DNA of 64,000 nucleotides from a virus. The translations under genes were made by a program, and so were the position numbers. The stretch is from the IMG/VR virus record IMGVR_UViG_3300050030_000022, positions 1 to 64,000 of that record; one strand, written 5' to 3'. This document shows positions 5,899 through 59,984 of the stretch, piece by piece. Below the pieces are notes generated by a model. It was not told where the DNA came from. It was given only the letters and a program-made list of their open reading frames with translations, and ran no database searches. Position 1 is the stretch's first letter, and every line of letters begins with the position of its first letter.

Positions 5899-6411
5899 TT
5901 AAAAAGTTCTGTATTTCGTTTTGGGGCGTGACCCGTAAGTAAATGCCCAGTCAACTCCCGCGAGATTATCAATGAAAGAGGCGTTCTCAGCTTGTGTACC
6001 TTGTTCCTGCCCCAAGCCCTTAGTCAGCATCCAACGCCACACCACGTAAGAGATAATCGTATCTTGTATGGCATTGGTCAGCATGGCACTGTTGCGCCCG
6101 GTAATCCACTTGTCAGGTTCGTCCAAGATGTAAACCAGTTGATTGGGGTAGTCCTCCAGATTCCCGGTTACGTCAAAATTTAAAACAAACGGTTCAATCA
6201 CACTTGAATCCTCGGTGGCATACTTAGCCAGTTTTACCCATATCTTATTAGCGACATCCTTTAAAAAGACGTTGAACATATCCCGGCTCTCGTTATTCAA
6301 TGGTACAATGTCTGATTTGACAGGGTTTTGGTCTATCGTCTGAGATAGATAAACCGTGCGTTGCCACACCAGAAGAAAAATATTGTCCAGTGAAAAAGAA
6401 ATCGTGATCAT
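5899..6411 (-). CDS. Putative tail adaptor/ring protein (paralogue 1)
   Basis: 170 aa in the structural operon; similar layout to the downstream ORF. Confidence 0.5.
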   Translation of the reverse strand: MITISFSLDNIFLLVWQRTVYLSQTIDQNPVKSDIVPLNNESRDMFNVFLKDVANKIWVKLAKYATEDSSVIEPFVLNFDVTGNLEDYPNQLVYILDEPDKWITGRNSAMLTNAIQDTIISYVVWRWMLTKGLGQEQGTQAENASFIDNLAGVDWAFTYGSRPKTKYRTF

Positions 6412-7025
6412 TATTTCAGTCTTAAAATCAGTCCGCCCTTATAAATCAACTTATCAAAGTCAGTTCCAATTCCTGCGGAAAGCCCCCAACCCTCCCGGCG
6501 GATATACATTAACGATACGTCCGCGGAGTTGAATTGCTTGCCCCAGAATCCGGCTCCAATATTAGTATAAAGATGTGACTTTTCACACCTAACATTGGTT
6601 TGATATTGCGTTAAATCTACCGTTTTTTCCTTTGTGATTATGAGTGATTTTATCAAACTCGGTGGATTTATGGTCATGGAGTTTAACACACCTGTTACGT
6701 TGGCAGTCCAATGGAGTTCAAACTGAGGATGAATGTAAGTCCCTGTGTATTCGGATTGTTCTATCGGGCAGTCCAGCCATTCGGTTGTCCTGATATTTAC
6801 CGTATCAATAACCTTGTGGGTAAACGGTAGATAAATCACCTGCTTTAATGTGTCCCTTCTTACAACGGTGTCAGACTTAACGGGTGCATGTACGCAATCG
6901 TATAGTTGTTGCTGTAACGAGGCAATTTGTTTTTCATCCTCCCGGCGGTCACATTTATAGAACAGAAATTGGAACAGGATAATCCCCGCCAGTGCCACAC
7001 AGAAATATAGAGGTGCTTTGTTCAT
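6411..7025 (-). CDS. Spanin-like envelope protein
   Basis: N-terminal TM helix, short coiled coil, DTV/DTL-rich linker and amphipathic C-terminal beta strands; close to the lysis genes. Confidence 0.5.
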   Translation of the reverse strand: MNKAPLYFCVALAGIILFQFLFYKCDRREDEKQIASLQQQLYDCVHAPVKSDTVVRRDTLKQVIYLPFTHKVIDTVNIRTTEWLDCPIEQSEYTGTYIHPQFELHWTANVTGVLNSMTINPPSLIKSLIITKEKTVDLTQYQTNVRCEKSHLYTNIGAGFWGKQFNSADVSLMYIRREGWGLSAGIGTDFDKLIYKGGLILRLK

Positions 7026-7059: not shown

Positions 7060-8403
7060 TTAAGGTGTATCGCATTCCAGTTCAACCACCTCAAAGACCC
7101 CAAAACCTGATATATATGTCATAATCAAATCTCCGTCTTTATTGGTCGTTATGGTACGGTTATATGTTTGATATAAATCTGTTTCATTAATCAGGGAGCA
7201 CCCTACTACGCCGTCTAAGACGGTTAATTTAATAAGATTATCTCCAAATGCAAATGCGCTACAGCTACTCCCGTACGTCATGGTGCTACAGCTACTCCCG
7301 TACGTCATGCCGTTACAGCTACTCCCGTACGTTATAAAAAAACAAAAGGGGTCTAACTTTATTGCATAACAATTCTCTCGAAAAACAATATTGTTCAACC
7401 GTGAAAAAACACCCATATTTTCAGGATCATCCAATGTGCTAATAATCCCTATATCAATATCGTGACAACCTGTTCCAAAGGTGTAGACATCAGAAAAAGA
7501 AGTGACGTCAATGGAAACGGCTACGTTAAAAGCAGTGCTGTCAGTTATCCAAGATAGCAGCGAATCACCTGACACATCTAAGAGATATTGCCAGTAACGG
7601 GTAGAATCAGCAGGGAGTTTATCCGTAGAATCCCCTACAATGCACTTATAAATGACTCCCGAAGACTTACATATTTCATCAACAGAATAAACCGTAGCGG
7701 CGTTATAATCAGGTGCATCACATTCCCACCTTCTGAATTTGACATTTCTAAAATCATATCCCGTTGACAGGTTTTTAATCAAATCTTTTCTAAAGGTAAT
7801 CACTCCCTTAAATCCTGCGACAATAGCGATGGAATCAGCCGAAAAAGAAACATCAGCCAGCCAGTTATCAGGGTTCCAATCGTATTTTATTTCATCCTGT
7901 GGAAATAGTGGCGAATAAACCTGTGAATCTATTGTACTGTCAGAAGTTGCAAGCAGGATCAAAGGTTCTAATGTCCCGGTATTGATAGCCGTGTCTATCG
8001 TTGTTGAACCATCAGTAAAATAATGAACGGTCTGAAAGTCTGTAATCCGATACCAACCGCCAGCAGTTAGTGTTTTGGCACCTATTGCGGTTACTAATGC
8101 AGTATAAATAACATCGGTTATGGTCGCAGCATCTCCTGCCGGGAAATCGGCCCGAATAGCCGAGGCGGTATCATTCACCAAATTCTTTGTTGCATAATTT
8201 GCACTGTCACCAAGCCAGATAGGGTCAGTTTCGCTACCCGTTCCCGAAGAGGGCTTACGGATGTAATCATAAGTTCCCGTGTAGGTGTTAAGTATCATTT
8301 GCAGGGAATCCTTGACATCCCTGAATTTAACCTTTTCCACAGCCTGCCCCCTGATGCCAAAAGCCAGACCCATCAAAGCCAGTACAATAATTAACTTTTT
8401 CAT
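7060..8403 (-). CDS. Tail-fibre-like protein with Sec signal peptide
   Basis: MKKLIIVLALMGLAFGIRG|Q leader. YRITDF...KGVI..RKD..N..YDFRNVKF and TYGSSC repeats resemble Bacteroidota phage fibre proteins. Confidence 0.6.
   Translation of the reverse strand: MKKLIIVLALMGLAFGIRGQAVEKVKFRDVKDSLQMILNTYTGTYDYIRKPSSGTGSETDPIWLGDSANYATKNLVNDTASAIRADFPAGDAATITDVIYTALVTAIGAKTLTAGGWYRITDFQTVHYFTDGSTTIDTAINTGTLEPLILLATSDSTIDSQVYSPLFPQDEIKYDWNPDNWLADVSFSADSIAIVAGFKGVITFRKDLIKNLSTGYDFRNVKFRRWECDAPDYNAATVYSVDEICKSSGVIYKCIVGDSTDKLPADSTRYWQYLLDVSGDSLLSWITDSTAFNVAVSIDVTSFSDVYTFGTGCHDIDIGIISTLDDPENMGVFSRLNNIVFRENCYAIKLDPFCFFITYGSSCNGMTYGSSCSTMTYGSSCSAFAFGDNLIKLTVLDGVVGCSLINETDLYQTYNRTITTNKDGDLIMTYISGFGVFEVVELECDTP
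7261..7335. repeat. 27-bp tandem repeat, about 3 copies (encodes xTYGSSCxx)
   Basis: acagctactcccgtacgt at 7261, 7288 and 7315. Confidence 0.9.
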
Positions 8404-19061: not shown

Positions 19062-19796
19062 ATGACCAAAACCATTGCCATAATACCGATTAAGGGCAGG
19101 GAAACCCTCGCCTACCACACAATCAAACGATTGGTCAATGATAATATCCGTACCGTTTGTGTGGGTCACACGATGGCTGAGAAGTGTGTGGTGGAATGCG
19201 CCGGTGGGGACTTTATTAAAGTGAAAGACCGCATAACTTTGGGCGCAAAATGGCAACTTGCTTTAGATAAAGCCCGTGAACTTTCTCCCGACCAAATACT
19301 TTACATGGGCAGTAGTGATTTCGTTTCCCATAACTGGGTAAAAGTCATCCAGCAAGACCTTGATAATGGTTACGCCATGACGGGGACTAAAGGTATTTAC
19401 TTTCTGGACATCCAACCCCAAAATAAAAAGAGGATGATCTGGTGGGAAGGTTATCTGAAAGACCGCAGTGATGAACCTATCGGAACGGGGAGGTTGTTTT
19501 CGGCTAAGATGCTGGACTTGATGAATTGGAGATTATTTGATACAACACAGGATCACTCGATTGATTTCTACCAACTGCAATCACTACGGGCATATACTGA
19601 GATGTGGCCGAAGGATAAACTGATTTGCTACAATGATTCCAAAGAGATCGCCAGTTTGTCCATTTCGACTTATCGTTGGGAAAACAAACATAACTTTGCC
19701 GGTGAATCCAAATACCCGACCGCAAAGATAATGCAGTCCCCGGATAATGTTCTGAATAAGTATTTTAAGGAAGTAATAAATTTGTTCAATGAATGA
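19062..19796 (+). CDS. Glycosyltransferase family 2-like protein
   Basis: IAIIPIKGR, LGAKWQ, ILYMGSSDF, PIGTGR. Confidence 0.65.
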   Translation: MTKTIAIIPIKGRETLAYHTIKRLVNDNIRTVCVGHTMAEKCVVECAGGDFIKVKDRITLGAKWQLALDKARELSPDQILYMGSSDFVSHNWVKVIQQDLDNGYAMTGTKGIYFLDIQPQNKKRMIWWEGYLKDRSDEPIGTGRLFSAKMLDLMNWRLFDTTQDHSIDFYQLQSLRAYTEMWPKDKLICYNDSKEIASLSISTYRWENKHNFAGESKYPTAKIMQSPDNVLNKYFKEVINLFNE

Positions 19797-23292: not shown

Positions 23293-23544
23293 ATGAAATT
23301 GGAAAATTTTGATCGGGTAAAAGAAATAGTTGATTTAATATCTTATAATGAGAGGCAAATTAACCGCATCCAGTCGTCCACTTATGTGGCTTTCACAACG
23401 CCTACGGGTCACGCTCAGTTCGAGATCGCCGTTCATACATTGGGAGAACCTTATTATGAATTGGCTAATAATTTTTTAGTTGACGTGGTTGCAAAAATAC
23501 AATCTCAAATTGAGGATTTAAAAAGGGAACTCGAAACCTTATGA
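23293..23544 (+). CDS. Phage hypothetical protein
   Basis: 83 aa with a C-terminal coiled coil. Confidence 0.55.
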   Translation: MKLENFDRVKEIVDLISYNERQINRIQSSTYVAFTTPTGHAQFEIAVHTLGEPYYELANNFLVDVVAKIQSQIEDLKRELETL

Positions 23545-23714
23545 CTTTCACCGTCTACTTTGAAATCTTTGGCAAGAAACTCAAGACTACCATTGAGGCC
23601 AACTCGGAAGAGGATGCTAAATATAAGGTGATGGGTAAGATCAAATGGCACAAGATCACGCCGGGGAGTGAAGATACTTTTGATTGGTTGAAACATCAAA
23701 TGGGAATAAAATAA
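23541..23714 (+). CDS. Small phage protein (57 aa, below the ORF-track cutoff)
   Basis: MTFTVYFEIFGKKLKTTIEANSEEDAK...; ATGA overlap with the upstream stop. Confidence 0.6.
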   Translation: MTFTVYFEIFGKKLKTTIEANSEEDAKYKVMGKIKWHKITPGSEDTFDWLKHQMGIK

Positions 23715-23735
23715 CATCCATTAAATATAAACAAT

Positions 23736-24041
23736 ATGCCATTTTACAGATCAAAAAAAGACTCAGATATAGTGGAATTTTTCGGCGTACCACCAGACCC
23801 TATGTATTGGGATTTGATTATTGATGAGCAACCACCCTCCGCCCTCTCCAATCAAATCGGCGGTACGCATTACAAAGACTTTAAGATTCAGCCTGCACAG
23901 TTTTTCTTTGCCAATAACACCCCTTACTTAGAGGGCTCCGCCTGTCTGTATATTCTACGATGGCGCAAAAAGAACGGTATCGAGGACTTGCGAAAAGCTA
24001 TCCATACGATTGAAATGCTTATTGAGATGGAGGAAAAATGA
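23736..24041 (+). CDS. DUF3310-like (T7 gp1.7-related) protein
   Basis: QIGGTHYK..IQP, YILRWRKKNGIEDLRKAIH. Confidence 0.75.
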   Translation: MPFYRSKKDSDIVEFFGVPPDPMYWDLIIDEQPPSALSNQIGGTHYKDFKIQPAQFFFANNTPYLEGSACLYILRWRKKNGIEDLRKAIHTIEMLIEMEEK

Positions 24042-39200: not shown

Positions 39201-40270
39201 CCCATATTAGTATACACCATTGGCATTGTAGCGGTCTGCACTGCACCTTTGGCTACCAATCCTGGCATTTCACGGCCAACCTGTGCCAGTTTAGGCATAA
39301 ATTGTTTGATTTCTCCCAAATTCTTTCCCACTATGCCTAACATAGAGTTCATTCCCTCTTTAGCAATCGTTCCCGCGCCATTGGTTGCAGCAAACTGAAC
39401 CATATAAGGTATCTGCATGGTAATTTGCTGACCGATGTTGTATGGTAGGCTACCCGGTTGACTTAATATCGTTTGATAAATGCCGTAACAGGCTAATAAT
39501 GCCTGTTCTTTATCGTTCAACTGTTCACCTTTGCCCGCCTTCTGAGCCACACCCGCCACATCAAACTGGCGGTTCATTTCGGTAAGACCCATAGTGAAGA
39601 AGTCTTTAGCCAACGGCGACAATAATCCTTTAGTGAATTGCTGAAAGACATTGGGTGTGTTTAATTCGGTACGTTTCTCTGCAATTTTCAGCCAATCTTT
39701 TGCATCGGTCAGGTATTGTTTTTCCCGTAATAAATTATCGTAATCGGGGTTGTGCAGTTCGGGGTCATAATTGGTTTCACTGACCTTCCCGGCGCTATAT
39801 CCGCCCGTTAATGGTGGTGCGGGCGGTTGCGATACAACATTCAACTTCTGCGTGACATCATTGATCATGGTGTCGAGGAGTTGGTTATCATTGGTAAAAT
39901 CATATTGAATGCCCTGTGGGGTAGGCACTCCCTTATTTAACATGGACAACCCTAAAAATGGGATATTACCGGGTATTCCTCCCGATTCTGCAATTTCCCG
40001 CATTCTTTCTGATGGTTTTTTTCGCTCAGTAGGTAGTGCGGCTGTGGGGATGTAAGACTGAACGCTTTTATAGAACGTATCAAAGTCCCCTATTTCTGCT
40101 TGGCTGAACTTGTATTTGCCCGTCAGGTCGTTGTATAAATACTGTGCCTTTGTGGGGTCGGTAATGTTGGTGCGGAATATGTCATACGTCCCCAACTGGC
40201 TCTGGCCTATCCGGTTCGATCCTAAGATGTTGTTATACAACTGTAATAATAAATCTGGTCTATCAGGCAT
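30245..40270 (-). CDS. Giant internal virion/ejection polyvalent protein (GNAT-like, zincin metallopeptidase, JAB/RadC-like domains)
   Basis: About 3340 aa, likely start MPDRPD. HEIVAHHG, HNHPSG..S.AD and RQKGQA..WYRKYDF motifs. Confidence 0.8.
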   Translation of the reverse strand: MPDRPDLLLQLYNNILGSNRIGQSQLGTYDIFRTNITDPTKAQYLYNDLTGKYKFSQAEIGDFDTFYKSVQSYIPTAALPTERKKPSERMREIAESGGIPGNIPFLGLSMLNKGVPTPQGIQYDFTNDNQLLDTMINDVTQKLNVVSQPPAPPLTGGYSAGKVSETNYDPELHNPDYDNLLREKQYLTDAKDWLKIAEKRTELNTPNVFQQFTKGLLSPLAKDFFTMGLTEMNRQFDVAGVAQKAGKGEQLNDKEQALLACYGIYQTILSQPGSLPYNIGQQITMQIPYMVQFAATNGAGTIAKEGMNSMLGIVGKNLGEIKQFMPKLAQVGREMPGLVAKGAVQTATMPMVYTNMGEKIAGQVDPEGNIISQSSLPVGMMKGLANSFPDILTESMGTHIIASIPRIGTLLGKKAAQGVSRWLTPVQKFKGAAMFGSFPEEFSEEMMSNVITPMIDPDTKASDVWTGQNILTTTITLAAVGGGFYASNVAYKSLDEQILRNKYLSDLPKETKSSVIDALKQDKPADVSSSLSDILHKSGVTDQQGLNIITYAWNNAMRRGMGESLLSTLAEQEKQKADEPLKPQAVENLKAQGVPEEKIAEVLNTPESILSPGQQKIKAQFDQELGRVRIDKDEQLAAADQVKAQYAPFTYKDNEHLVQIVDREGNHWWVKDGDVTINPEDGTWKLGKKPLIVVPDGGGEAMMIPFDDVVGVRATSLSELGGVSASNVAQRQQQNKIGEQILQKLDEVQNPPETTLRMGESITYNGRQADIIETGKDFVKAIYEDGTQVTIPESEFGSVEKTTPEQAGEVTAPNVPPVAQNAPENVQPTAQKTVLKANLNGKDVPVPFTALPDGSLQSNPSFAKESEANKVAKALGDKYSQSEFTPVNTADPSDALAENNFVIVSRPKPAEKPTGLPAKGAEFVINGDETNTTFRIDNKGKVQAFLDGAWSDSGASDMILATAKGSGFTLKSKQNEQVKEKASPEAGKESAATQEVQPQEGEVITKPQEEIQHDQENIEGLPGGEPQGEAVEQGRPELRGGTGQVTGSGDVQTHEEKVNEPPIAPDQAEVVPQAEVPETGIPASEQPPDLQPISETNPQPELQQESQHELQPWEMTREKFVGEGYTFDQTDRSLNMELNKWQKIKNEADKEKYNIPAFDKAIAGVNRKIELSKQHRESITQALSEGKPVPENVLADYPDLRVNPEKPTTNLKPQPEKPKGVESGVESKPYDRFAKDLGLTEPVDVIGGDAKTGKIGDATIVVAQHTPEAVTLESIKVPLKQRQKGQANAAMRDITDKADELGITLKLKAVPEVSSDMTAQQLRDWYRKYDFLFVGNTGERLPKEGGMSEKPTPVSVSPQKGGGIEIKQKPPDEFVGNALKPKSKPKEFVGEVLKPKPTTPEDRLTDLGSQISKVKQEIDYLKKQRKNKGIPTEREADLKKDLAKLRDQYRKLDFSIPIKENPDAPPMPTGENLNEWIGWVRLYSTNPQDIHIAWQQEREHNIPYDKLHDWQLATLETRTTIKSFTDHNDKNNITQGLIKRFTDKNGTPLDRIAAEKFEDGIDVTPGEVAQFMVDVVNNSDIIRKTTDDQLDLAYRFKKLTGYSINKYREWNEKNVGQINISDELGAEIANFTDISIIDNPDYLASFKDDAISEGWMTDQDYIDIQDYLNNKGYEETISYSRGTEETLEGVAEHPGEGKRVEGKPEATARQREIARIKADYTRQIKDLKETLVSDSQLRNRQNEAVRAANKKISLFGQAGSLGEKDMFVGEGAFGTNETTIRKNIADQVKAYNKQVNETIAQLEKDMRSEVALAEKQIEMPMDVQEKPPSEPNILQSTQSEDILPDQSVNVENPLFKKYDYIGDMYSELTTGSKEFETTVRQMASDISKETGVKVNIVKSKNNLDDRTRAAIEKAGNKTDGFYDLDSKEVTLILNNITSSDRAATVLLHEIVAHHGLRALFEHNVKGFNKLMDQVYDSMTEEEKRYMAKRYPRPKTGISYKQLLADEYVAQKAQGGVKPTWWGRFIAGLRNLLRQAFGKFVKWTDNDINDLLRRSRENLRETAPETEFVGDILGEKAALRRDGLLAEGEYLRMSAETAGATPENILMEQNEAERAYGSIQAKDEAIRKLVQEVNEQYADKSKTSGDKIKPRTVIDTFAEQGYVDFTGLKINNPQDVAELWSIHRSPYIEKAHVVFLKDGDIVGTAAYTLNKPGSTQFPESPEIRDLAIGFGANQFYLVHNHPSGNHNASAADIFVTGRIVQNLMNGETWGKEPVEMLGHVVIDHEKFTFISPERALDYYNQYKSNISFRGIANEQIDNYSQSNEYKNAKPRLFTEREALGSNNGRNAQTRMVEIGKALLTDKGYHAAIIYLSPNLNINAYDVPPENLDLQGVINYGMERVKDEKLGHNLIILHDGIFGEDMGESVTVPDYVLDIINTKTETSHALNQVKMGGNERQQLWEVQYPYDKPNILMSQETEPDMEGKPRKMKDIYSEVRDTWFGNRDVAKAKANVEAFNTQTEIQKIFTTEKPKWAKTWQDIDRAIQIHIDTQAHPEHIQQYWNDLTPRQQALVTASEELTPSMKAIADRIGAEYTKMGQLALDNMVIANVLENYVNRIWDISGQAGHDAWKKFSLTTRHSKKRVFGTIIEGMAKGYNLKVEGASNSLEILKNEIHNVIENRNLINSGKQVKDEDGNPLFATQQLPGYKMVEHPSFKIWGYDGKLKHKKEANSQYNDEVDYKFDESTGKFKDIEYHNRDIFITENGTVMRRKQVYAPAPVAKNLNDILSTSWFREQPAAKQLIFINALLKRNVLSWSFFHHLAFTRAYLLGSALHQFSDLNIRKSYKAGLDAYFHMTPDVESLIRAGMTIGRMQDWEEDLLRSKTLVDGWLDQLKVTKDVRDKIHKLHEAHTDFLFKRYGAGLKVKFALLELAKQRKLNPKLDDKVILGMIARIANDNFGGLHYERMGISKTWLDFNGLWLLARDWTLSNVRLMVKAIHSGSKAETRMYRRYWLRAISRVAFLSVGLNLMMAVFNDPDDQETYLETLTHQYKDAFDKPGQLNWLSMDVTPVNRLMGGEEVDQQGNEVRKYFNIAGHFKDPYKWTEQAVTGSWTTPIKNKGSIFARTVFDLMEGNNWQGKRYTTLAEVLGYDDKGVYMSTNEKLGYRVGEPKGGKLKGKLTKWPPPNETGGVNSDEMLSFILANGRDWLPIPLQNSVAFAMGETSAFDMVTHGVGFHVNTNRIKGYDIEAEYKKVYDAATLSQRMYHDAMNHNEFDKAEAISKTPEFEKSLMVIDFTHSAKKVPGDIVWDLQNKMKDALDMGDNKTYDELNTQRKAIMQMIVDDYNK

Positions 40271-40281
40271 AATGTTTATTA

Positions 40282-41616
40282 TTAGCGTTGATACCACGGA
40301 ACATCTGATTCCTCTTTCTGTTCGCCTGAAGTCGTATTAGCGTTCTGTTGATCGGATGTTTTAGGCAGAAAAGATGGGTTAGTTAAATCGGTCATAACCT
40401 CCGGCAATGCCTCCCATGATTGGAACTTCCCGGTTGCGTCATAAATAGGCTTGTAATATTTCTGATACTCCGAAGCGATCATTCCATCCACAATCTGCTT
40501 TGATTGTTCATAATTTGCACCAACCAAATCTTTCATCCTTTTAGAGATTTCAGCCGTTGGATGGTTCATAATCTTTTGGTACACATCAAAATAGAGTTCC
40601 TTTGGAATCGTCAACGTGGCATGGGTCTGCTGATCCACTACCGGCACGTTATCCCCGGCTAACTTAAACTGATCGGTCACAACCTTATCTGCTGCCCTTG
40701 CGTTTTCAGCACCAATCCTCTTACCCAACAAATCCAGGTCGTACCCGTATTTCTTTTTCATCTTTTCCAAGTCGTTCGCCTGTTTATCCTTCATTGTTTC
40801 ATCGCCCAATTCATGCTTTGCACCCATTAAGGCAGCATTGTAACCGGCTTTATTCTTCTGCAATTCCTCAGCATTGGTAGCCCTTTGGTTCATCATCGCC
40901 AATGTATCGTTGTACTTTCGCTGATATTGCTCGTCCCCATACGCATACTTAAAGGCATTTTGCATCGTATTGGTCTTCATCAGGTCGTAACGGTCTTTCC
41001 TCTGTTGGTACTCGTCATGTTCCTTTTCGTACTGCGCCAAGAGTTGCTGGGTCGTCACATTGGGTTCGGGATTAATTGGAGAGCCGTGTTTTGCCCCGTA
41101 ATGATAATCAACAACCTGCCTTATCATCTGTCCTAAAGCGTTGATGGCAGCTACCGTGGCGAGTTGGTTGCGCTTTTTCTTATCCAGTTCCGGTTCGGCG
41201 GGCAGGGTGTTCTTAAAGATTTTCATATATTCCTCATAACCTGTGGGTAGGGAGGATTGTGTACTTGGCTGAGCGGCAGGTGGTGGAGTAGCGTTACTTT
41301 TGTTTTGTTTTGCAGCCTCAGTGAAGGTGGTGTAAGGTGGTATTTTCCCTGCTTTGACCGCTAAATCTCCCGGCGATCCCTTCAGATAGCCGGCGTTTAA
41401 ATCATAATCATTGGATGTGGCTACTGGTTGCGTGGGGTCTAATGGTGCTGCTGCCGGGTTATTAACCAACTCAGACACATAACGGGGGTCGTAGTTCTGC
41501 GCCGATGGGTCGCCCGGTCGCTGGTACTGAGCCAATATCTGCCCGACTATATCGGGTTGCTCAAGTTTTTTCTGTGCCATATTGAGCCAAAAGTTCGGGT
41601 CTATTATTGGTGTCAT
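40282..41616 (-). CDS. Putative DNA ejection protein
   Basis: Q/A/K-rich coiled coil upstream of the giant protein. Confidence 0.55.
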   Translation of the reverse strand: MTPIIDPNFWLNMAQKKLEQPDIVGQILAQYQRPGDPSAQNYDPRYVSELVNNPAAAPLDPTQPVATSNDYDLNAGYLKGSPGDLAVKAGKIPPYTTFTEAAKQNKSNATPPPAAQPSTQSSLPTGYEEYMKIFKNTLPAEPELDKKKRNQLATVAAINALGQMIRQVVDYHYGAKHGSPINPEPNVTTQQLLAQYEKEHDEYQQRKDRYDLMKTNTMQNAFKYAYGDEQYQRKYNDTLAMMNQRATNAEELQKNKAGYNAALMGAKHELGDETMKDKQANDLEKMKKKYGYDLDLLGKRIGAENARAADKVVTDQFKLAGDNVPVVDQQTHATLTIPKELYFDVYQKIMNHPTAEISKRMKDLVGANYEQSKQIVDGMIASEYQKYYKPIYDATGKFQSWEALPEVMTDLTNPSFLPKTSDQQNANTTSGEQKEESDVPWYQR

Positions 41617-52041: not shown

Positions 52042-52074
52042 TTGTTTAAACCTGTGCATTTTCACTTATATTTG
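52042..52074 (+). promoter_or_regulatory. Class-1 promoter for the tail operon
   Basis: TTGT-N8-GTGCA-N8-TATATTTG. Confidence 0.7.
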
Positions 52075-52091: not shown

Positions 52092-55000
52092 ATGACTAAC
52101 GAGGGTCTTCTTCCGCAAAATCAAAAACTTACCATCATCCCAACGGGGATAAAACGCCATCAGCACGATCTGAATTGTGAAGATGCGGGATGTGAGGAAG
52201 TTGTGAACCTGCGTTTTAAGAACGGCAGTTGGCGCACGGTGGGTGAAAAAACCGCTGTATGGTCATGGGATCACGGGTGTGCTTTACTTTATTACCATGC
52301 TTACATCAATGAAAAGAATGGTACGGATTACTATGTGGGTGTGGCTTATGAGGGGTTGGGCTTACCTAATCTTTATTTAGTTAAGCCAACAGCCCAAACC
52401 AAAACCTCCATCAAGGGCATTTCCACCGATCCAAGTGAAACCGTATTATCCGTTACCAGTCTAAACTCGATCCTAATTGTCACCACTGCGGATAAAGAAC
52501 TGATATTTAATTGGGACAATGACACCTCGGCTTATGTGGAACTCTCAAAAGACATTTGCCCGGACATTTCATTTCAGTACCAGGTCAGCCCTGATGCTAC
52601 CGACTGGATTATTATTACCGGCGGAGATTATAAGGAGTTTGACACTCAAGCTGAATTGTTCGACCAAATCCTGATTGAAAAGTATAAGAAACGCCAAAAG
52701 GGTTTATTCTCTCACTGTTGGATCATGATTCAGTGGGCTTTTCGGTTATGGGACGGCTCTTACATACGACATTCCCAACCATTTTTACTCAAATTAAGCA
52801 ACGGAACTCCGGACTATTGGCAGACCTTAGTGGAGGCCGCAAAATACCATACGATACTTGAAACGGGGATTCCAAAGTTTTACATCAATATGCCCACGGC
52901 GGTACGTGCCAATTTAGAGCATTACAAGGGGCTTATTTCAGACCTGTGTGTATTTATGTCACAGGACGTGTCCCAATACCTGTGTGAGTACAACGGTTCA
53001 CCGTACACCACGGATGGAGTTGGACACCGTTACGCTTTCTCAGACAACACCGACTCCCTGCACCAACTTGTTAATCTTTATCCGTATTACCTTGCCAAAG
53101 AGGTAAAGTATTCCGAATTAATGGAATCGGATAACACCACTAAGTTTGAGATTAATCTGAATGAAGTTATTAATAAACTGAATTTCTCAGGGGATGGCGG
53201 TGAAAATATCGACACGGTAGAAAAAATACCCGTCAGGCACAATACTTATTCATTTAAGAGATTGGGCGGTGGTAATTGGCTGAATCTGCTATATGGTGGT
53301 TTTGGTGCTTTAACTAAAAATGGAAATTGGAATAAAGTATGGTACACCCAAGACGATGCTGAACAAACCGTTGAGGCTACCGATGAGGCCGGGTCGTTCA
53401 TTTTGCAATCACAACCCGAACTACCCGTTGACGACTTTTCCAATCACACCCTTATAGGTAACGCCACCCCGTATATTTACAATGCCAAATTACATAAGGG
53501 CAATATCAACGTCAGGTTTGGTAACGCACCCCAATTCTCCGAATGGAATGCCTTTACAGGTTATACTTTGATGCCTGCCGGAGATATGCCAGGTATATGG
53601 ACTTTTTACCGGGAGGTCAAGATAGTGACCGATTTGGGCGACCGCTATGTTAGGGAAGTCTTTACTCCCTATCTCCAGGTAAATATATCGAGCGATATGT
53701 TGCGCATACCCCCGATTGTGTCCTATCCTGACGCAAGGGCTACGCGAATAAGAATTATCATCAAGAAAACCGGGGATGCTAATTATTACGAAATGGCATC
53801 CTTTGAACTTAAATCCCACAAGATTTACAATTACGCTTACTGCATAACCAACGAAACCACGACTGGCGCAGACCCGGAATACCTGCTTTTTGATTTTACA
53901 AATATCGTTTTTACCAATAATTTCCCCGCCTCTTTCCCGAATGTCTGCGGGGTAAACGGTATAGACGCAATGGCAACCGATGATCGTTACTACTTGGATA
54001 AAAACCGGGTGCAGGTGTCAAGGATTAACAACGCTCTATATTACCCCTCGATGTATTCCTACCAGTTTGGAAACTCTGAAACCGTTATTTTGGCTTTCGG
54101 GAGCCAGTCTGCCCCCATATCCCCAGGACAGTTCGGGCAGTTCCCGCTAAGTGTTTTCACTTCTCAAGGTATATTTTTAATGCAGCAGGGCGGCGGGGAT
54201 GTTATCTACTCAGCTATTGTTCCCTTAAACAACGAAGTTGCGTTTAAAAACTCCATCTGTGAATTAGGCGGGGCAATAGTATACGCCAGCCGGGATGGAT
54301 TAAAGATACTTTCAGGCAACCGGCTGCAACACATCTCCCGTGAAGTGGAGGGCGTACCTTCGGATAAATTAATCAATGATAGTTACTATATTAACTTCAT
54401 AACCAACGCGGACGGTCATTTGGTCAATCTGTACCAATACCTGAGCGAAGAAGATTTTCTAACCTATCTGGATGAGAACGTCAGGGTGTGTTATGACAAA
54501 ATGAATAAAGAACTCATTATCTCTAACCGGGATTTATTTACCGATCAGGGGAGGAATAGTTCTTCGGGGTATTCTTACGTTTACAATTTACCTTACAAGA
54601 CCTGGCACAAGATCACCGACACCTGGCATCAGTTTATCTTAGTAAATAGCCGTTGGGTGGGGTTAAAGAATTACCGGGCGGGGTACACCACGGGATTGGG
54701 CGCACAATATATGGACGGCGAAACCTCTGTTTTACAAGACTGCATGATTCAATCCAGACCTATGAAGTGGGGCAGTTATGAGTTTAAAAAAATGCGCACG
54801 ATTGTTCAGCGATCCCTTTGTTGTGTTGGTGATATACTGGATTCCCCACAAGATGCCGATGATAAATTTGGGATGTATATGTTCGCCAGTTTGGAAAATA
54901 ACATCTGGAAATTTGTCAAAGGCATTAAAGTATCTCAGACTTTTGGCATGATACAGCACCCCACTTTGGGAAGTAATGAAGCCTCCGTGCGCCAGATCGT

Positions 55001-55187
55001 TTTACTGACGGCTGTAAAGAGCAAGGATATGGTGTTTTCCCATTGGGAAATCCTGCGGGGGCTTACCAACCCTGATAAGTTGGGAACCGAAGCTCGCCAT
55101 GATACCGAAAACCTTTTAGGGGAATACGATGCCCAGCAGTACGGCGAAAGTTATGATATTGGAATTTCAACAGAAAATCTACCATGA
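52092..55187 (+). CDS. Putative tail nozzle/hub (stabilisation) protein
   Basis: 1031 aa, beta-rich. N-terminal GI.R..DL..G.CEEVVNLR; ISPGQFGQFPL.VFT..GI; SYVYNL...WHK; QSRPMK. Confidence 0.65.
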   Translation: MTNEGLLPQNQKLTIIPTGIKRHQHDLNCEDAGCEEVVNLRFKNGSWRTVGEKTAVWSWDHGCALLYYHAYINEKNGTDYYVGVAYEGLGLPNLYLVKPTAQTKTSIKGISTDPSETVLSVTSLNSILIVTTADKELIFNWDNDTSAYVELSKDICPDISFQYQVSPDATDWIIITGGDYKEFDTQAELFDQILIEKYKKRQKGLFSHCWIMIQWAFRLWDGSYIRHSQPFLLKLSNGTPDYWQTLVEAAKYHTILETGIPKFYINMPTAVRANLEHYKGLISDLCVFMSQDVSQYLCEYNGSPYTTDGVGHRYAFSDNTDSLHQLVNLYPYYLAKEVKYSELMESDNTTKFEINLNEVINKLNFSGDGGENIDTVEKIPVRHNTYSFKRLGGGNWLNLLYGGFGALTKNGNWNKVWYTQDDAEQTVEATDEAGSFILQSQPELPVDDFSNHTLIGNATPYIYNAKLHKGNINVRFGNAPQFSEWNAFTGYTLMPAGDMPGIWTFYREVKIVTDLGDRYVREVFTPYLQVNISSDMLRIPPIVSYPDARATRIRIIIKKTGDANYYEMASFELKSHKIYNYAYCITNETTTGADPEYLLFDFTNIVFTNNFPASFPNVCGVNGIDAMATDDRYYLDKNRVQVSRINNALYYPSMYSYQFGNSETVILAFGSQSAPISPGQFGQFPLSVFTSQGIFLMQQGGGDVIYSAIVPLNNEVAFKNSICELGGAIVYASRDGLKILSGNRLQHISREVEGVPSDKLINDSYYINFITNADGHLVNLYQYLSEEDFLTYLDENVRVCYDKMNKELIISNRDLFTDQGRNSSSGYSYVYNLPYKTWHKITDTWHQFILVNSRWVGLKNYRAGYTTGLGAQYMDGETSVLQDCMIQSRPMKWGSYEFKKMRTIVQRSLCCVGDILDSPQDADDKFGMYMFASLENNIWKFVKGIKVSQTFGMIQHPTLGSNEASVRQIVLLTAVKSKDMVFSHWEILRGLTNPDKLGTEARHDTENLLGEYDAQQYGESYDIGISTENLP

Positions 55188-57760
55188 AAAAACTATTATT
55201 GTTTTGTTTTATAGCATTAATTAGTTGTTCGGTTTTTGCTCAGGTCAAGTCAGATGCGGACATGAACACCTATAACAATACTTATATCAAACCCAACAAT
55301 ACAGGCGCGATAAAGGCGACTATGCACAACACCCTGAATAAGTATATCATCAACTCCAAAATCAACCGGGACTCGATTGGTAATGTGCAGGTATTGGGTG
55401 ATACGGCTTTGGTGGTCATTTATAAGAATAACCCGCCTGATACGGTACAAATAGTTAATGCCTCCACAAGCGGATGGGCGACTTCTGGAGATTACGTTTA
55501 TTTAATCAATGTCGGCGATAGTGTAGGGATTGGAACAGCCTCTCCGGGTTATAAATTATTTGTCAACGGTGGTTTTGGCGGGTCAACTTATATGGTTTTA
55601 CAACCTACTGCAAAATCAGGGGCACGTGACGGGCAGATTTATAATGATGTAGATAATCATTTATATTATTATAATGGATTGGCGTGGAAACAACTGGACA
55701 ACGCTTCAGGGGAGGTGGACATCTCAGGTGATACGTTATTTGTCAACGGCGATACGATAATCGTAAGCCCAAACTACTGGGCTAAGGACATAGCCGGCAA
55801 TATTACCAATAACAATACCGGAGATGTACGGATAGCTAACGACATCCAATTTGTCGCCGGTCAAACGCACGCTATCGGGATTACAAATAACACACCTTAT
55901 CCCGGCAATCACCTGTTAATCCAGTCTGGTATAGGGACGATAACAGGAACTTCCATTGCGGGAAACATCTACATAACGCCTCCTTTAGCGGACACGCCCG
56001 GCAATGTTATTCTAAACGTGGACACAGCCGGAAACAAAAATGGATTCACCGGGATTGGCGTGGCAGTGCCGCAGCAAATGTTAGACGTTGGCGGACAGAT
56101 CAAGGTTCATTCGTTGGACACCTTAATCGGGAAGCATCTTATTTTGGTATTTGACGAAACGGATAGCACTCTGGCAGTGATTCCATTTGATTCTGTGGGG
56201 GGTGGGGGTGCTTCCCTGTGGTATCTCTCCGGTGATACCGCTAATACTGTTTATAACGTGAAGTTGGATTCTAATTTATTCCTGAATAAAAACCTTAATC
56301 TTGTCACAACAACCGCAACAGACGGGCAGATAAAGCAAAATGGAACGACAGTATTTCATACTTATCACGAAAAGGGGGACAATAACTTATTTATCGGACA
56401 GGGTGCGGGAAATTTTACAGCTGATTCAAGTGGTAATATAGGAATAGGTGCAAGTGTATTAGATGCTTTAACTATAGGATATAGAAATGTTGCAGTTGGT
56501 TATAAGGCACTTGATAAATGTTATAAAGGTTTTGAAAATGTAGCAATAGGGTTTGAATCATTGTATAATGATACAAGTGGTACTAAAAACACAGCAATAG
56601 GTGCATATGCACTTGCTGGAAATTTAAAAGGAAGTACTAATACGGCTATTGGAAGTGCAGCATTATATTTAAATTCTATTGGTATTAGTAATACCGCATT
56701 AGGTTTTGCGACTTTGTATAATAATGCAGGAGGTTATAATTCTGTAGCACTTGGATATATGGCTATGTATAATGCATATAATGGAACAAGCCTTCGTGGT
56801 ACTTATAATACCGCTATTGGCTATGAAGCCATGAAAGGTAGTGCAATCCCTGCAAACAATACTGGTCAATATAATACAGCTATTGGCTATCAGGCATTAG
56901 ATGCAATGACATCAGGCGAAAAAAATACCGCCATTGGTGTAGATGCATTGGGCGCAAATACAACCGGCTCCAATAATATCGGCATAGGTTACAACGCAGG
57001 CAATACAGCAGCTTATGCAACCCTTTCTAATCGCATCTACATTGGAACCGGTGACACTGCGACCGCACCGATTTATGTGAATGCGGGTATCGGTAAGACA
57101 ACCATCAACGGCGACCTTCATGTCACCGGCAACCTGACAGTAGACGGCACCTCTCCCGGCGGTGCTGAAAGTGATCCCGTCTGGATAGCAGATAGTTCGG
57201 CTTTTCTTAGAACGATTGACACCAATACTTATGTCGCTTCGCACAAATGGGTAACGGATAAAGGGTATTTAACCGCTTTACCGGCTTCCGCTTTGGAATG
57301 GTCGGACACCACAGCAAGTGCAGGGGTAGGGGTAGGCACCTTTGACGACATAAGAGATACGGCAGCCGCTATCCGGGCAGACTTCCCCGCTCCCGGTGGG
57401 GGTGTACCGCCTGTAATCATTTCCTGGGACGGTCAGGGTGGTGTTGTTGGAACCGGAAATACAGTTTACCGGACAATGGCTTATGCCGGGACGATAACGG
57501 GCTGGTCAATCACAGCAACGGGGACTTCGCCGACTTGTACGATTGACATTTGGCGGGTGGCAACGGGTGGAACGACTTTGCCGGCGGTCGGTAATACAAT
57601 CATGGGGACAAAGCCGGCTCTATCTACCGGGAATATCATACGAAGCACCACTTTAACGGCGTGGAACCCTGTGGCTTTTTCAGCCGGGGACACTTTCGGG
57701 TTTAATATAGGCGCCTGTGCGGCTGCTTTAAAAATAACATTTTCTTTAACGATACAATAA
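55184..57760 (+). CDS. Tail-fibre/adhesin-like protein with Sec signal peptide and NTAIG beta-roll repeats
   Basis: MKKLLLFCFIALISCSVFA|Q; VGIGT..P; 14-aa N(T/V)A(I/L/V)G..AL repeats; ESDPVW; coupled to the nozzle gene. Confidence 0.7.
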   Translation: MKKLLLFCFIALISCSVFAQVKSDADMNTYNNTYIKPNNTGAIKATMHNTLNKYIINSKINRDSIGNVQVLGDTALVVIYKNNPPDTVQIVNASTSGWATSGDYVYLINVGDSVGIGTASPGYKLFVNGGFGGSTYMVLQPTAKSGARDGQIYNDVDNHLYYYNGLAWKQLDNASGEVDISGDTLFVNGDTIIVSPNYWAKDIAGNITNNNTGDVRIANDIQFVAGQTHAIGITNNTPYPGNHLLIQSGIGTITGTSIAGNIYITPPLADTPGNVILNVDTAGNKNGFTGIGVAVPQQMLDVGGQIKVHSLDTLIGKHLILVFDETDSTLAVIPFDSVGGGGASLWYLSGDTANTVYNVKLDSNLFLNKNLNLVTTTATDGQIKQNGTTVFHTYHEKGDNNLFIGQGAGNFTADSSGNIGIGASVLDALTIGYRNVAVGYKALDKCYKGFENVAIGFESLYNDTSGTKNTAIGAYALAGNLKGSTNTAIGSAALYLNSIGISNTALGFATLYNNAGGYNSVALGYMAMYNAYNGTSLRGTYNTAIGYEAMKGSAIPANNTGQYNTAIGYQALDAMTSGEKNTAIGVDALGANTTGSNNIGIGYNAGNTAAYATLSNRIYIGTGDTATAPIYVNAGIGKTTINGDLHVTGNLTVDGTSPGGAESDPVWIADSSAFLRTIDTNTYVASHKWVTDKGYLTALPASALEWSDTTASAGVGVGTFDDIRDTAAAIRADFPAPGGGVPPVIISWDGQGGVVGTGNTVYRTMAYAGTITGWSITATGTSPTCTIDIWRVATGGTTLPAVGNTIMGTKPALSTGNIIRSTTLTAWNPVAFSAGDTFGFNIGACAAALKITFSLTIQ

Positions 57761-57761
57761 C

Positions 57762-58967
57762 ATGAAAAAATACTTATTGATATTAATGATATTGCCCCTG
57801 CTTAGTTTTGGCGGCAAACGCTATTGGGTCGGCGGGGGGGCCTCGGCCAACTGGAGTGCAACCGGTAATACTAATTGGTCATTGACTTCCGGCGGGGCAG
57901 GTAATGCAGCCGTCCCGGGTACGAGTGATTCAGTTTATTTTGACGGGGCGGGAAGTGGAAATTCCGCTTCGACCATCTCGGCAACGATAACGGTAATGAG
58001 ATTTGAGATTACATCAGGTTACACGAATACGATAACTCACAATGCCGTTCTGACCTGCTCAGGTGATTTCACCCTTAACACCTCTTACACTATTGCGGGG
58101 AGTTCACCTGTCACGCTTTCGGGTACTTGTACCATTACATCTGGCGGCAAAACATGGCCTAATGCAATGACATTTTCTGGAGCGAACACAAAAACACTTT
58201 CTGGTAATTTAGTAATTTCAGGAGATTTAACTCTTTCAACTGCGAATAGTATTATTAATTGGACGACAAATGAAACCTTATCATGTGCGGGACTAATGAT
58301 CAGTGGAAGTCAAGCAGCTGGCACGGCTAAAATTATAGTAACTGGCGGAATACTTTATATGAACTCTTCAGGTTATATGGCTGGAAATAATATAGATATT
58401 CAGGGAAATGTAACGATTGGAGTAAATTTTGGGTTCGGAAATTCGAAAACATTAACTTATGTAAGCGGAACAGTCACAACTACTTCATCAACATTTTATA
58501 TATTAGGGAGTTGTACTTTAAATACTGCCGGAATTGCGTGGAATAATATTTATGTTAACTCAGATGCGACTATTACTAATAATTCTTTATTAACGGTTAC
58601 CGGAACATATACAATGGCATCATGGAATGTTTCATGGCAAGGAAACTATGGGTTTACCGTTGGAACTTTAGTCATGTCGTCAACTTCAAATTCAAGTGCC
58701 CTTACCCTAAATGATGGGGTGACTTATACCGTAACAACTGTCTTGCAGGCATATCTTTCCAGAAAGGGTTCTATTGTGACAATCACATCAGACGATGCAA
58801 CGAATAAAGCAATATTAACCCTTAATCAGGGAGCGACCTGTAACGTTTTGGCGAACCTTACAAGGATAGACGCCTCGGCGGGCAGAACGATTTTCACATT
58901 TAACGGAACAATAACAAACTGCCTGAATGTGGTCGAAATGCACGACCGGGCAACGGTAGGAAACTAA
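57762..58967 (+). CDS. Exported beta-helix/passenger-like protein
   Basis: Signal peptide; RYWVGG...NWS..SGG...VP...D.VYFD; T/S/G/N-rich beta strands. Confidence 0.65.
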   Translation: MKKYLLILMILPLLSFGGKRYWVGGGASANWSATGNTNWSLTSGGAGNAAVPGTSDSVYFDGAGSGNSASTISATITVMRFEITSGYTNTITHNAVLTCSGDFTLNTSYTIAGSSPVTLSGTCTITSGGKTWPNAMTFSGANTKTLSGNLVISGDLTLSTANSIINWTTNETLSCAGLMISGSQAAGTAKIIVTGGILYMNSSGYMAGNNIDIQGNVTIGVNFGFGNSKTLTYVSGTVTTTSSTFYILGSCTLNTAGIAWNNIYVNSDATITNNSLLTVTGTYTMASWNVSWQGNYGFTVGTLVMSSTSNSSALTLNDGVTYTVTTVLQAYLSRKGSIVTITSDDATNKAILTLNQGATCNVLANLTRIDASAGRTIFTFNGTITNCLNVVEMHDRATVGN

Positions 58968-59050
58968 CATTTAAAACTGGCAAAAGAACACTGGAACCTG
59001 AAAAGATACCAACCTAAAATTATAGACGATTAACACTTAAAACTAACAAT

Positions 59051-59935
59051 ATGAAAACAATTAAAACACTTTTCTTAATTTCTTTACTGACTTTTGCTTT
59101 GGCAAGTCAGGGGCAGACAACGCAATTATACTATAAGGGTTGCGGCAAAGTGCAATCAAAAACGTTTGATCTGACTTATGGAACCAACGGTCAAGATAAA
59201 CCCGTGGGCAACCATTTTAAATTCTGTCTTTTAAAAGACGGGAACTATTTGTATGGTCAGGATGCACTTACTGAGGCTGAAAAACCTGTTTGGGGTGATA
59301 ATCAAAATCGAACAATCGAAGAGTTGTTACCTCATTTGACGCCCGATGTCGGCGTGAAATTCTTATACAGTAATAACTGGCATCCAATAGCCGTGGATAG
59401 CCTGCCAACTACACTGGGTACTACCTATCAACTAAGAGTTTGGAGTGGGAATTATTCTGGTGGTCAAAAAACATATTACAAATCCAGTGAAATGCCCTTT
59501 GAGTCGGTACAGTATTGGCTCAGCATTGGTTTTTTTACGGAATGGAAACAATATAATTTGCCTGACCGAACTGCTTCAATAAACCCTGACTGGATCAATA
59601 ACGAAGCGATCCGTACCGTTGAACGTGCGGAATACAAACAGATTGTACAGGAATACTTTGCCCTCATGGGCGACTACTCGTTTCCGACTTTTCCAACTAA
59701 CCCTTCTGCGTTAGGTGGCTGTGACAGTTGGGTATGGAAAATCCAGTATAGCGGAGAATCCTGGCAAACCTTAACAGTTGATCCGACCTTTTGGCTTGCA
59801 TCACCAAATGGATTCCCTATAATTCTTTACAGGGAAATTCCGATAAGTTGCAAATACTATAATTTGCAATGGGATAGCAAGATAAATAATACGATATCGG
59901 GCGAAGATCGAGTGAAAAGACTTTTAGGAATGTAG
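59051..59935 (+). CDS. Exported protein of unknown function
   Basis: MKTIKTLFLISLLTFALASQG|Q signal peptide. Confidence 0.6.
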   Translation: MKTIKTLFLISLLTFALASQGQTTQLYYKGCGKVQSKTFDLTYGTNGQDKPVGNHFKFCLLKDGNYLYGQDALTEAEKPVWGDNQNRTIEELLPHLTPDVGVKFLYSNNWHPIAVDSLPTTLGTTYQLRVWSGNYSGGQKTYYKSSEMPFESVQYWLSIGFFTEWKQYNLPDRTASINPDWINNEAIRTVERAEYKQIVQEYFALMGDYSFPTFPTNPSALGGCDSWVWKIQYSGESWQTLTVDPTFWLASPNGFPIILYREIPISCKYYNLQWDSKINNTISGEDRVKRLLGM

Positions 59936-59958: not shown

Positions 59959-59984
59959 AAACCCCGTATTTAACGGGGTTTTTT
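59959..59984 (+). terminator. Rho-independent terminator ending the tail operon
   Basis: AAACCCCGT-ATTTA-ACGGGGTTTTTT. Confidence 0.85.

Follow-up and report, generated by a model that had tools for sequence, protein, structure and literature searches.

Fibre-type proteins with predicted Sec signals and enriched Bacteroidota O-glycosylation motifs in a phage related to temperate Bacteroides phages

To our knowledge, the tail fibres studied so far, which decide host range, are made and attached in the cytoplasm. Here we describe a locus that may depart from this arrangement in IMG/VR virus record IMGVR_UViG_3300050030_000022, a single virus contig of 73,181 bp, the first 64 kb of which form the analysed stretch (hereafter the window). 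A four-gene unit at 52092-59935 contains, as its second gene, the coding sequence of a fibre-type protein of 858 amino acids (aa) that begins with a predicted Sec signal peptide and is enriched in D-[ST]-[AILVMT], the motif of the Bacteroidota general O-glycosylation system. The most likely explanation of this locus and its counterparts is that of phage fibre proteins maturing in the periplasm.

Parts of such a pathway have parallels in described phages. Host Sec and the envelope are used before lysis by Sec-dependent lysis proteins (SAR endolysins, spanins) and by exclusion lipoproteins (T5 Llp, Cor), but these are small and without fibre homology, whereas the proteins considered here (294-858 aa) include fibre homologues of 400-860 aa, and no lipobox cysteine for signal peptidase II (SPII) is conserved. 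Glycans on the virion proteins of mycobacteriophages are added by phage-encoded glycosyltransferases in the cytoplasm. The tail proteins PblA/PblB of Streptococcus phage SM1, which also act outside the virion, have no signal peptides and leave the cell by lysis; here, in contrast, the host periplasmic system and Sec would do the work.

On the host side, O-glycosylation in Bacteroidota occurs at D-S/T-A/L/V/I/M/T, only non-cytoplasmic proteins are modified (the substrates being signal-peptide-bearing or membrane proteins), sites are generally nearly fully occupied, and engineered motifs become glycosylated (PMC12871550). The same motif occurs here in a viral protein, at an unusually high density (11 sites within 340 residues); the word "phage" is absent from the main text of that review (PMC12871550). 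The Q-rule, i.e., cleavage by signal peptidase I (SPI) that exposes Gln at position +1, is likewise documented (PMC5837995; PMC10653852), and Q-rule signal peptides on Bacteroidota phage genes are already in print: predicted SPI cleavage exposing Gln, along with signal-like capsid proteins, is common to our phage and the P. gingivalis phages of Matrishin et al. (2023; PMC10367356). There, the five genes concerned have no assigned function and are read as host-membrane modifiers, with no link to fibres in the relevant passages and without the string "glycosylat" in the main text (PMC10367356). What appears to be new, having not turned up in the main texts covered by our literature searches, is the fibre identity of such genes, the modular signal gain in fibre families, and the O-glycosylation motif enrichment.

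The features of the 858-aa protein (55184-57760) are as follows, with a slash marking predicted cleavage:

55184..55240 (+): predicted Sec/SPI signal peptide, residues 1-19, cleavage VFA/Q, called by our own heuristic
55241..55588 (+): conserved domain at the mature N-terminus (N-domain), residues 20-135, Q-VKSDADMNTYNNTYI...SKINRDS; D63-S64 and D86-T87 are invariant
55241..56263 (+): N-terminal third rich in the motif (11 copies out of 14), residues 20-360
56264..57103 (+): fibre shaft of N-T-A-I-G-type repeats, residues ~361-640 (phrog_4636, phrog_6002, phrog_23837)
57413..57757 (+): C-terminal beta-rich domain, residues 744-858

With tailed-phage fibres and tailspikes, such as the N-T-A-I-G fibres of cyanophages, pelagiphages, and Flavobacterium phages, the 858-aa protein shares homologous shaft repeats and a layout of N-domain, shaft, and distal part. 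Its central repeats match the tail spike family phrog_4636 (1.2e-27) as well as phrog_6002 and phrog_23837 (tail spike/virion protein PHROGs), and a tblastn search reached genes annotated as tail fibre or spike in 83 phage records. The N-domain, however, is unrelated to the usual fibre N-termini. No Pfam family was matched at E <= 0.01, PF26696 and PF13884 (Peptidase_S74) included, and PDB sequence searches with the 858-aa protein, with 1031- and 447-aa proteins of the same phage, and with a profile of the 401-aa family (all described below) returned no match. The whole-protein model has a mean predicted local distance difference test score (pLDDT) of 56, below 50 in the N-terminal third and best (60-90) in the shaft, and was not used for fold claims. 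Its C-terminal domain, with strands at 744-857 (pLDDT ~55-73), is possibly the distal tip. A separate AlphaFold2 model of residues 1-370, built from the family alignment, reached a mean pLDDT of 63 and was assigned no fold; Foldseek found no PDB match at E <= 0.001, and among viral models there were only weak matches of low template-modelling score to fibre-like proteins. By homology, the 858-, 401-, and 447-aa proteins are phage fibre-type proteins.

Signal peptides were called throughout by our own hydrophobicity and cleavage-site heuristic, which is not a validated predictor. The heuristic flags all three of the N-termini that a sequence-only reading of the window had described as classic signal peptides, namely MKKLLLFCFIALISCSVFA/Q (858 aa), MKKYLLILMILPLLSFG/GKRYW (401 aa), and MKTIKTLFLISLLTFALA/SQGQ or ...SQG/QTT (294 aa). 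Two of the three had been credited with Gln at +1, which is clear for the 858-aa protein and possible but ambiguous for the 294-aa protein; the 401-aa protein has none. The fibre signals are short and canonical, with a K-K n-region, an h-region of 12-14 residues, small residues at -3/-1, and an invariant Gln at +1; in the 858-aa protein, this Gln20 is invariant in alignments A1 and A5 and nearly so in A7. Unlike Gln20, the lipobox-like Cys15 ("LISC") is not conserved in 10 family members, which makes a lipoprotein (SPII) signal unlikely.

A recount returned the 14 D-[ST]-[AILVMT] motifs first reported for the 858-aa protein, and also the lower counts given for other products (one each in the 401- and 294-aa proteins; two each in the 1031-aa protein, the portal, and a giant open reading frame [ORF]), although the last is of 3350 aa rather than 3340. 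Composition predicts 3.8 motifs in the 858-aa protein and none of 3000 shuffles reached 14, bearing out the suspected enrichment; for the mature part alone, 1 of 4000 shuffles reached the count, and the Poisson probability of 4.5e-5 becomes ~0.004 after correction for 98 ORFs. Enrichment is concentrated in residues 20-360, with 11 motifs against 1.53 expected (0 of 4000 shuffles). Within that segment, the reversed motif is absent (1.54 expected), D-[ST] followed by a residue outside [AILVMT] occurs once (2.16 expected), and 11 of the 12 D-[ST] dipeptides complete the three-residue motif; only the complete motif is therefore enriched. Outside this segment, an excess of N-[ST]-hydrophobic stems from the N-T-A-I-G shaft repeat.

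The N-domain defines a family in which signal and motif travel together. A HMMER search with residues 1-370 yielded 16 proteins that align from residue 1, all with a signal peptide (15 flagged by the heuristic; one, P0357, with an upstream start call, read by eye) followed by Q-VKSD...TYNNTYI...SK(I/V)xKDS. D63-S64 and D86-T87 are invariant in alignments of 10 (A5) and 13 (A7) members, with a third residue that fits the motif in 10/10 and 9/10 cases, respectively, of the 10-member alignment, and the 16 proteins pooled carry 128 motifs against 45.7 expected. Ten of these proteins were looked up and lie only on contigs of <=66 kb; there was no N-domain match in 50,697 phage records, which leaves the family without a cultured phage, and a metagenome scan with alignment A1 gave only six loci, none informative.

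Among fibre-repeat proteins at large, the signal is the exception in viruses. Only 1 of 71 complete IMG/VR fibre-repeat ORFs has one (locus L003), and the 70 signal-less ORFs are motif-poor (255 motifs vs 392 expected; observed/expected 0.65), in contrast to the Sec signal, Gln at +1, and threefold enrichment of the protein described here. Database hits to the repeat divide the same way: 73 with a signal carry 344 motifs against 258 expected, and 40 without carry 176 against 211.

A second, unrelated family is represented outside the region covered by the sequence-only reading, by a gene just downstream of the lysis genes:

7060..8403 (-): 447-aa signal-peptide protein (IRG/QA)
6411..7025 (-): 204-aa protein with an N-terminal membrane anchor, the next gene after that of the 447-aa protein; 3 motifs against 0.57 expected

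The N-terminus of the 447-aa protein, MKKLIIVLALMGLAFGIRG/QA, again places Gln at +1 according to the heuristic, and the protein has 10 motifs where 3.3 are expected (P ~0.001). Its C-terminal 70% is common to ~100 proteins and homologous to signal-less phage fibre-like proteins. The eight signal-bearing members (query included) contain 55 motifs against 22.9 expected, compared with 187 against 216 in the 91 signal-less members, whose N-termini we take to be typical of phage fibres. At aligned columns 137 and 155, the motif is kept in 4/6 signal-bearing homologues but in only 0/52 and 2/52 signal-less ones. At the corresponding place in a close relative, IMG/VR record G403 (L224 6326-9052), the flanking genes that hold the 447-aa gene in the window enclose three genes without a signal (150, 388, and 262 aa), i.e., a cassette swap. 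As for the adjoining 204-aa protein, its G403 homologue has 3 motifs against 0.7 expected, and motif-rich membrane-anchored proteins stand beside lysis genes elsewhere too: gp22 of Bacteroides phage BS-TP4 (L001 13297-13845; 7 vs 0.8) and an ORF at 23351-24007 of the siphophage G404 (5 vs 1.1). Given that BS-TP4 is cultured, gp22 might be an easy test of phage-protein glycosylation.

The third and fourth genes of the unit encode two further proteins with predicted signals:

57762..58967 (+): 401-aa beta-helix protein whose predicted signal (residues 1-17) immediately precedes the conserved R-Y-W-V-G-G-G start
59051..59935 (+): 294-aa protein of no recognisable family, also predicted to have a signal peptide

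The 294-aa protein matched nothing in Pfam, PHROG, or NCBIfam, and its Atlas model is poor (pLDDT 0.31). The 401-aa protein, by comparison, has an Atlas model with a beta-helix fold, the top three structural neighbour clusters of which are 100% viral, and it belongs to a family of >400 homologues. A signal is found in 42 of its 120 best database homologues, directly before R-Y-W-V-G-G-G, and signal-less homologues begin M-A-(A/D/N)-R-Y-W, the predicted mature start; in IMG/VR, none of 80 family ORFs has a signal, and these start M-A-x-R-Y-W. Since signal-less homologues start exactly where the mature protein is predicted to start, the N-termini appear to behave as separable export signals, a view that the data support. 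A quick maximum-likelihood tree was built from 80 of the 120 rows (the 40 without an R-Y-W start being dropped), on which the signal label needs 13 changes, fewer than in any of 500 label shuffles, and well-supported branches require >=7 of them; the count is approximate, in that the "signal-less" row P0132 probably reflects a truncated start call. The tree implies seven or more gains or losses of the signal. Searched against the 50,697 phage records, the 401-aa protein gave only two distant matches. One or two 401-family genes follow a signal-less fibre-repeat protein at four IMG/VR loci (L132, L136, L140, and L137), immediately at one of them and after a small intervening ORF at the other three, inside runs of same-strand genes that we read as structural modules. 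Many relatives (P0137, P0138, P0140, P0159, P0164, and others) have an extra N-terminal Hint-type domain (PF07591), which is self-cleaving and in some is itself preceded by a signal peptide.

Three fibre-like families of this phage thus occur both with and without an N-terminal signal, and two of them are motif-enriched only in signal-bearing members; these comparisons accordingly support a link between signal and enrichment in two families independently (N-domain and 447). Contig-wide, 37 motifs (15.5 expected) fall in the 10 ORFs predicted to be exported and 35 (45.7 expected) in the other 81, although the exported set minus its two top proteins shows only mild enrichment (13 vs 8.3). The predicted signal peptides would place the proteins outside the cytoplasm. 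In two families, the members with a signal are the only ones enriched in a motif that has no use in the cytoplasm, as would be expected from selection on exported glycoproteins, and we regard export plus O-glycosylation as probable, with good though not full confidence. Cleavage, pyroglutamate formation, and glycosylation would then follow by analogy with established host biology.

Whether such proteins would reach the virion is a separate question, on which the gene neighbourhood bears. The remaining features of the unit are:

52067..52074 (+): TATATTTG, which fits the -7 promoter element of Bacteroidota, 18 nucleotides (nt) before the ATG of the 1031-aa gene
52092..55187 (+): 1031-aa protein, first gene of the unit, without a signal peptide; its only match is phrog_32516 (function unassigned)
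59959..59981 (+): intrinsic terminator closing the four-gene unit, with a 9-bp stem (5 G-C pairs) followed by a T run

All four ORFs lie where the sequence-only reading had placed them (52092-55187, 55184-57760, 57762-58967, and 59051-59935). The ATG of the 858-aa gene overlaps the stop of the 1031-aa gene (ATGA), the 401-aa gene starts 2 nt past the 858-aa stop, and together with the promoter-like site and the strong terminator these features make 52092-59935 look like one transcription unit. Because the -7-type motif is not enriched window-wide (58 matches vs 61.6 expected), the single TATATTTG site is only suggestive as a promoter. The proposed "tail operon" holds only in part: the unit lies among replication and recombination genes, between the replication genes and SSB, and its first gene has no assigned function. 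Identification of that gene as a tail nozzle was not confirmed, phrog_32516 being its sole match; the 1031-aa protein matched nothing in Pfam, PDB, or NCBIfam, and a single-sequence search of IMG/VR gave no close relatives. Its homologues are a 1007-aa protein at locus L217 of G403 (52% identity), gp26 of BS-TP4 (22%), and gp33 of Bacteroides phage BF1-TP2.

In G403, the 1007-aa homologue is followed after 11 nt by an 811-aa signal-bearing fibre, and then by SSB. This fibre has the same N-domain (47% over 108 residues) and a different distal part. G404 (L218), a temperate siphophage unrelated to this phage, is complete at 33,973 bp and has terminal repeats; its gene order is a tape measure (791 aa), a 694-aa structural protein, and, 4 nt on, an 854-aa signal-bearing fibre with the same N-domain; past the fibre come a membrane protein and the integrase region, and no other G404 ORF of >350 aa could be a fibre. 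L003 repeats the layout with a 708-aa protein 26% identical to the 694-aa protein and a signal-bearing fibre of different N-terminus. The pairing of signal and sequons holds in both L217 and L218, where signal, Gln at +1, and conserved motifs are kept, while overall enrichment is clear only in L217 (9 vs 3.5, as opposed to 5 vs 3.2 in L218).

As with ordinary tailed-phage fibres, the gene stands beside tail genes in G404 and L003, and apparently in L217, and in four phages it is coupled to the preceding gene, overlapping it or 4-11 nt away. Fibres usually evolve by keeping the N-terminus and exchanging the distal part, a pattern typical of proteins docking on a conserved structure. All proteins of the present genome that show fibre homology have a signal, with no signal-less paralogue or signal-less fibre-like gene found; the signal-less 2645-aa fibre-like gene that follows the head-tail genes of BS-TP4 has no counterpart here. 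Gene position argues for a virion role, and it is from gene position only that we infer attachment to the particle.

A number of observations weigh against this interpretation, beginning with export itself. The heuristic that flags the fibres also flags the major capsid proteins of related phages, such that a hydrophobic N-terminus alone is no proof of export; capsids of the P. gingivalis phages are signal-like as well, which was ascribed to N-termini removed by (prohead) protease (PMC10367356). The 401 family is motif-depleted in both its forms (79 vs 215 expected in 120 proteins), a large Fn3 signal protein of this phage has no motif where 3.9 are expected, indicating that export does not always go with enrichment, and the signal-bearing 447-family members could be a single clade, in which case shared ancestry may partly explain the motif-signal link. 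One might suppose that the hydrophobic N-termini are not working export signals at all, serving instead in assembly or membrane tethering or being otherwise cleaved, with the proteins cytoplasmic and the motifs structural. The capsid proteins of the group, which assemble in the cytoplasm despite such N-termini, would fit this, as would the modelled placement of the invariant D63-S64 and D86-T87 at beta-strand starts and the recurrence in the 858-aa protein of G-D-T-hydrophobic, which could be structural. We nonetheless consider it very unlikely: the capsid segments run to ~35 residues, unlike the short, canonical fibre signals with their invariant Gln; the reversed motif shows none of the enrichment of the full one; signal-less homologues lack the motif at the same aligned columns; and enrichment recurs in two unrelated families only where a signal is present.

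Further objections concern the virion. BS-TP4 and BF1-TP2 carry the 1031-aa homologue without a fibre behind it, and the N-domain is found behind upstream proteins of two kinds that are unrelated to each other (1031 family; 694/708 family; BLAST of 1031 vs 694, E = 1.1), so that the upstream gene offers no obvious common docking partner. G403 holds both a signal-bearing fibre and the signal-less 150-, 388-, and 262-aa genes; a candidate signal-less receptor binder can therefore coexist with a signal-bearing fibre. With a promoter-like site in front, a terminator behind, and replication and recombination genes around it, the unit is placed as accessory "moron" genes are. We found no precedent in the literature, and know of none, for a tailed phage that adds periplasm-matured fibres to its virions. 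A complex prediction for the G404 694-aa protein with the fibre N-domain gave no support, which is not evidence either way.

Alternatively, the proteins may be exported and glycosylated yet never enter the virion, acting in the periplasm or after release. They might bind or cut the phage's receptor glycan, which would spare progeny from loss on debris and keep rival phages out, or be free soluble binding or depolymerase proteins hardened against outside conditions. All of the evidence for export and glycosylation applies equally to this possibility, to which the separate promoter-like site and terminator of the unit, its location outside the structural gene blocks, and the signal-less candidates of G403 lend weight; moreover, the N-terminal quarter of the 447-aa protein is a signal plus unrelated sequence, where that of its signal-less relatives looks virion-attachment-like. 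Sec-exported phage late proteins (SAR endolysins, spanins) and exclusion lipoproteins encoded next to receptor-binding genes (T5 Llp, Cor) are well known. A decoy or masking protein would, however, be expected to have a signal-less paralogue with the same binding part, and none exists here; the entire tail tip of G404 would come down to one 694-aa protein; and both the tight coupling to the preceding structural gene in four phages and the docking-type pattern of conserved N-domain and swapped distal parts speak against it. We therefore judge a purely non-virion role rather unlikely.

A cellular connection raises another alternative. Among the cellular genomes scanned, the fibre-repeat subfamily is almost confined to Bacteroidota; a first genome scan found nothing, and the cellular loci came from a second, made with alignment A2. 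Bacteroidota chromosomes hold many signal-bearing fibre-like proteins outside phage contexts, annotated as "tail fiber domain-containing proteins", which share the repeat subfamily and a signal usually with Gln at +1, but which have an A-Q-V-G-I-N-T N-domain and a Peptidase_S74 end, are chromosomal, occur in paralogue clusters without phage genes, and for the most part are not motif-enriched. Clusters of this sort (L090-L131 in Bacteroidota genomes) lie in several cases beside Fib_succ_major proteins. The phage proteins might thus be cargo that serves the host or lysogen, as adhesins of fibre shape or as envelope proteins, either drawn from the large cellular pool of exported fibre-like proteins or common to both. 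In keeping with this, 36 of 42 Bacteroidota loci of the subfamily encode signal-bearing proteins, their neighbours match only fibre-repeat or Fib_succ_major proteins with no phage head or tail genes, and the phage itself carries several Fn3/Fib_succ_major signal proteins like those neighbours, with cell-surface-type domains, meaning that it also makes non-virion exported proteins. G404 is temperate, and its fibre gene is the last large one before the integrase region, a classic "moron" position; the Q-rule proteins of P. gingivalis phages were read as possible host outer membrane modifiers (PMC10367356). Against cargo stand the restriction of the N-domain, in the ten proteins looked up, to contigs of <=66 kb, the different N-terminal domain and the Peptidase_S74 end of the cellular proteins, without counterpart in the 858-aa protein, and the results for the 401-aa protein, which in 401 Bacteroidales genomes gave only five weak partial matches (large cellular proteins) and no prophage copies. 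No integrase was noticed among the contig ORFs, although no search was aimed at integrases. Finally, the 858-, 401-, 294-, and 447-aa proteins show no type IX secretion C-terminal domain (Por_Secre_tail) in Pfam/NCBIfam at E <= 0.01, and with no conserved lipobox either they have no known route to the cell surface. This weakens the lysogen surface protein that had been offered as an alternative in the sequence-only reading, and we consider the cargo explanation quite unlikely.

Periplasmic maturation of fibres would take as its starting point the fibre homology, modular signal, and signal-linked motif enrichment that the sequence comparisons establish, and would proceed as follows. Fibre-type proteins (the 858-, 401-, 294-, and 447-aa proteins) having acquired host-type Sec signals would cross the inner membrane after synthesis and be cut by signal peptidase I, whereupon the exposed Gln of the 858-aa protein would be cyclised by the host to pyroglutamate. 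Host general O-glycosylation would load the D-[ST]-[AILVMT] sites, chiefly those of the 858-aa N-terminal third and of the 447-aa protein. The matured pool would wait in the periplasm until holin and endolysin join it with the cytoplasm, and only then, or afterwards in the lysate, bind to particles built in the cytoplasm; once bound, the proteins would serve as receptor-binding fibres. Export, glycosylation, and addition to virions at lysis had been suggested together: the first two are carried by comparison (separable signal, signal-linked motif), whereas arrival on the virion is not shown. That the fibres mature in the periplasm and return to the virion at lysis is hence a tentative proposal, to which we give somewhat less than an even chance. 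The same reserve applies to its general form, which we consider plausible but short of probable, i.e., that some tailed Bacteroidota phages send receptor-binding fibres through Sec to receive pyroglutamate and O-glycans, in a two-compartment assembly that would yield host-glycosylated virions and for which several fibre families adapted to the phylum by repeated gain of the signal.

Elsewhere on the contig, the following features were assigned:

8645-9079: endolysin (phrog_465)
11180-12541 (-): capsid protein
15395-17377: terminase
28208-30235: P22-type portal, 675 aa (PF16510, PHROG)
30245-40297 (-): polyvalent protein, 3350 aa from GTG, with RadC-like JAB (PF04002) and LPD14 domains; adjoins the portal
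60036 (+): SSB, with an exonuclease and a RecT-like gene behind it

The nearest cultured relatives are three temperate Bacteroides phages (described in PMC12694917) with portal identities of 36-37%, and the uncultured G403 (L217) is much closer (portal 80%, capsid 78%, terminase 70% identity). A long plus-strand block consists of replication and recombination genes. The capsid proteins of the group have a 30-40-residue hydrophobic Ala/Gly/Val-rich N-terminal segment, seen at window 11180-12541 (-), in BS-TP4 gp11 (L219 24293-25735), at G404 10808-12262, and in G403 (L224 11786-13150). The 3350-aa protein, considered as a fibre, was dropped from that role in view of its RadC-like JAB and LPD14 domains; with homologues of 5391 aa in BS-TP4 and 4590 aa in G403, it is probably packaged and ejected. 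Of the genes after the terminase (17650-21565, +), Pfam confirms only a radical SAM domain (19789-20793), and the idea that the phage's own sugar genes glycosylate its fibres was likewise abandoned, the guessed glycosyltransferases having no family match. Fn3-repeat signal-peptide proteins with Fib_succ_major/Lcl_C ends are encoded at window 1-1227 and 1275-2885 and at contig 68421-69338 and 71083-73179 (L002 5421-6338 and 8083-10179). Because the contig starts and ends inside ORFs, and an exact repeat of >=100 nt links positions 1 and 69029, the assembly probably broke within Fn3-family repeats.

Ultimately, if the proposal is true, virion assembly gains a step outside the cytoplasm, and the virion surface would carry host-strain-specific sugars, with consequences for gut stability, mucus sticking, immune recognition, and host range; phages or fibres made in E. 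coli would then be the wrong product. The pyroGlu-VKSD... peptide and the two invariant sites are direct targets for mass spectrometry, and the signal-plus-motif signature can be screened for in viromes. Even off the virion, these proteins would represent a class of exported phage glycoproteins, assembled from parts of fibres, that had not been recognised before.

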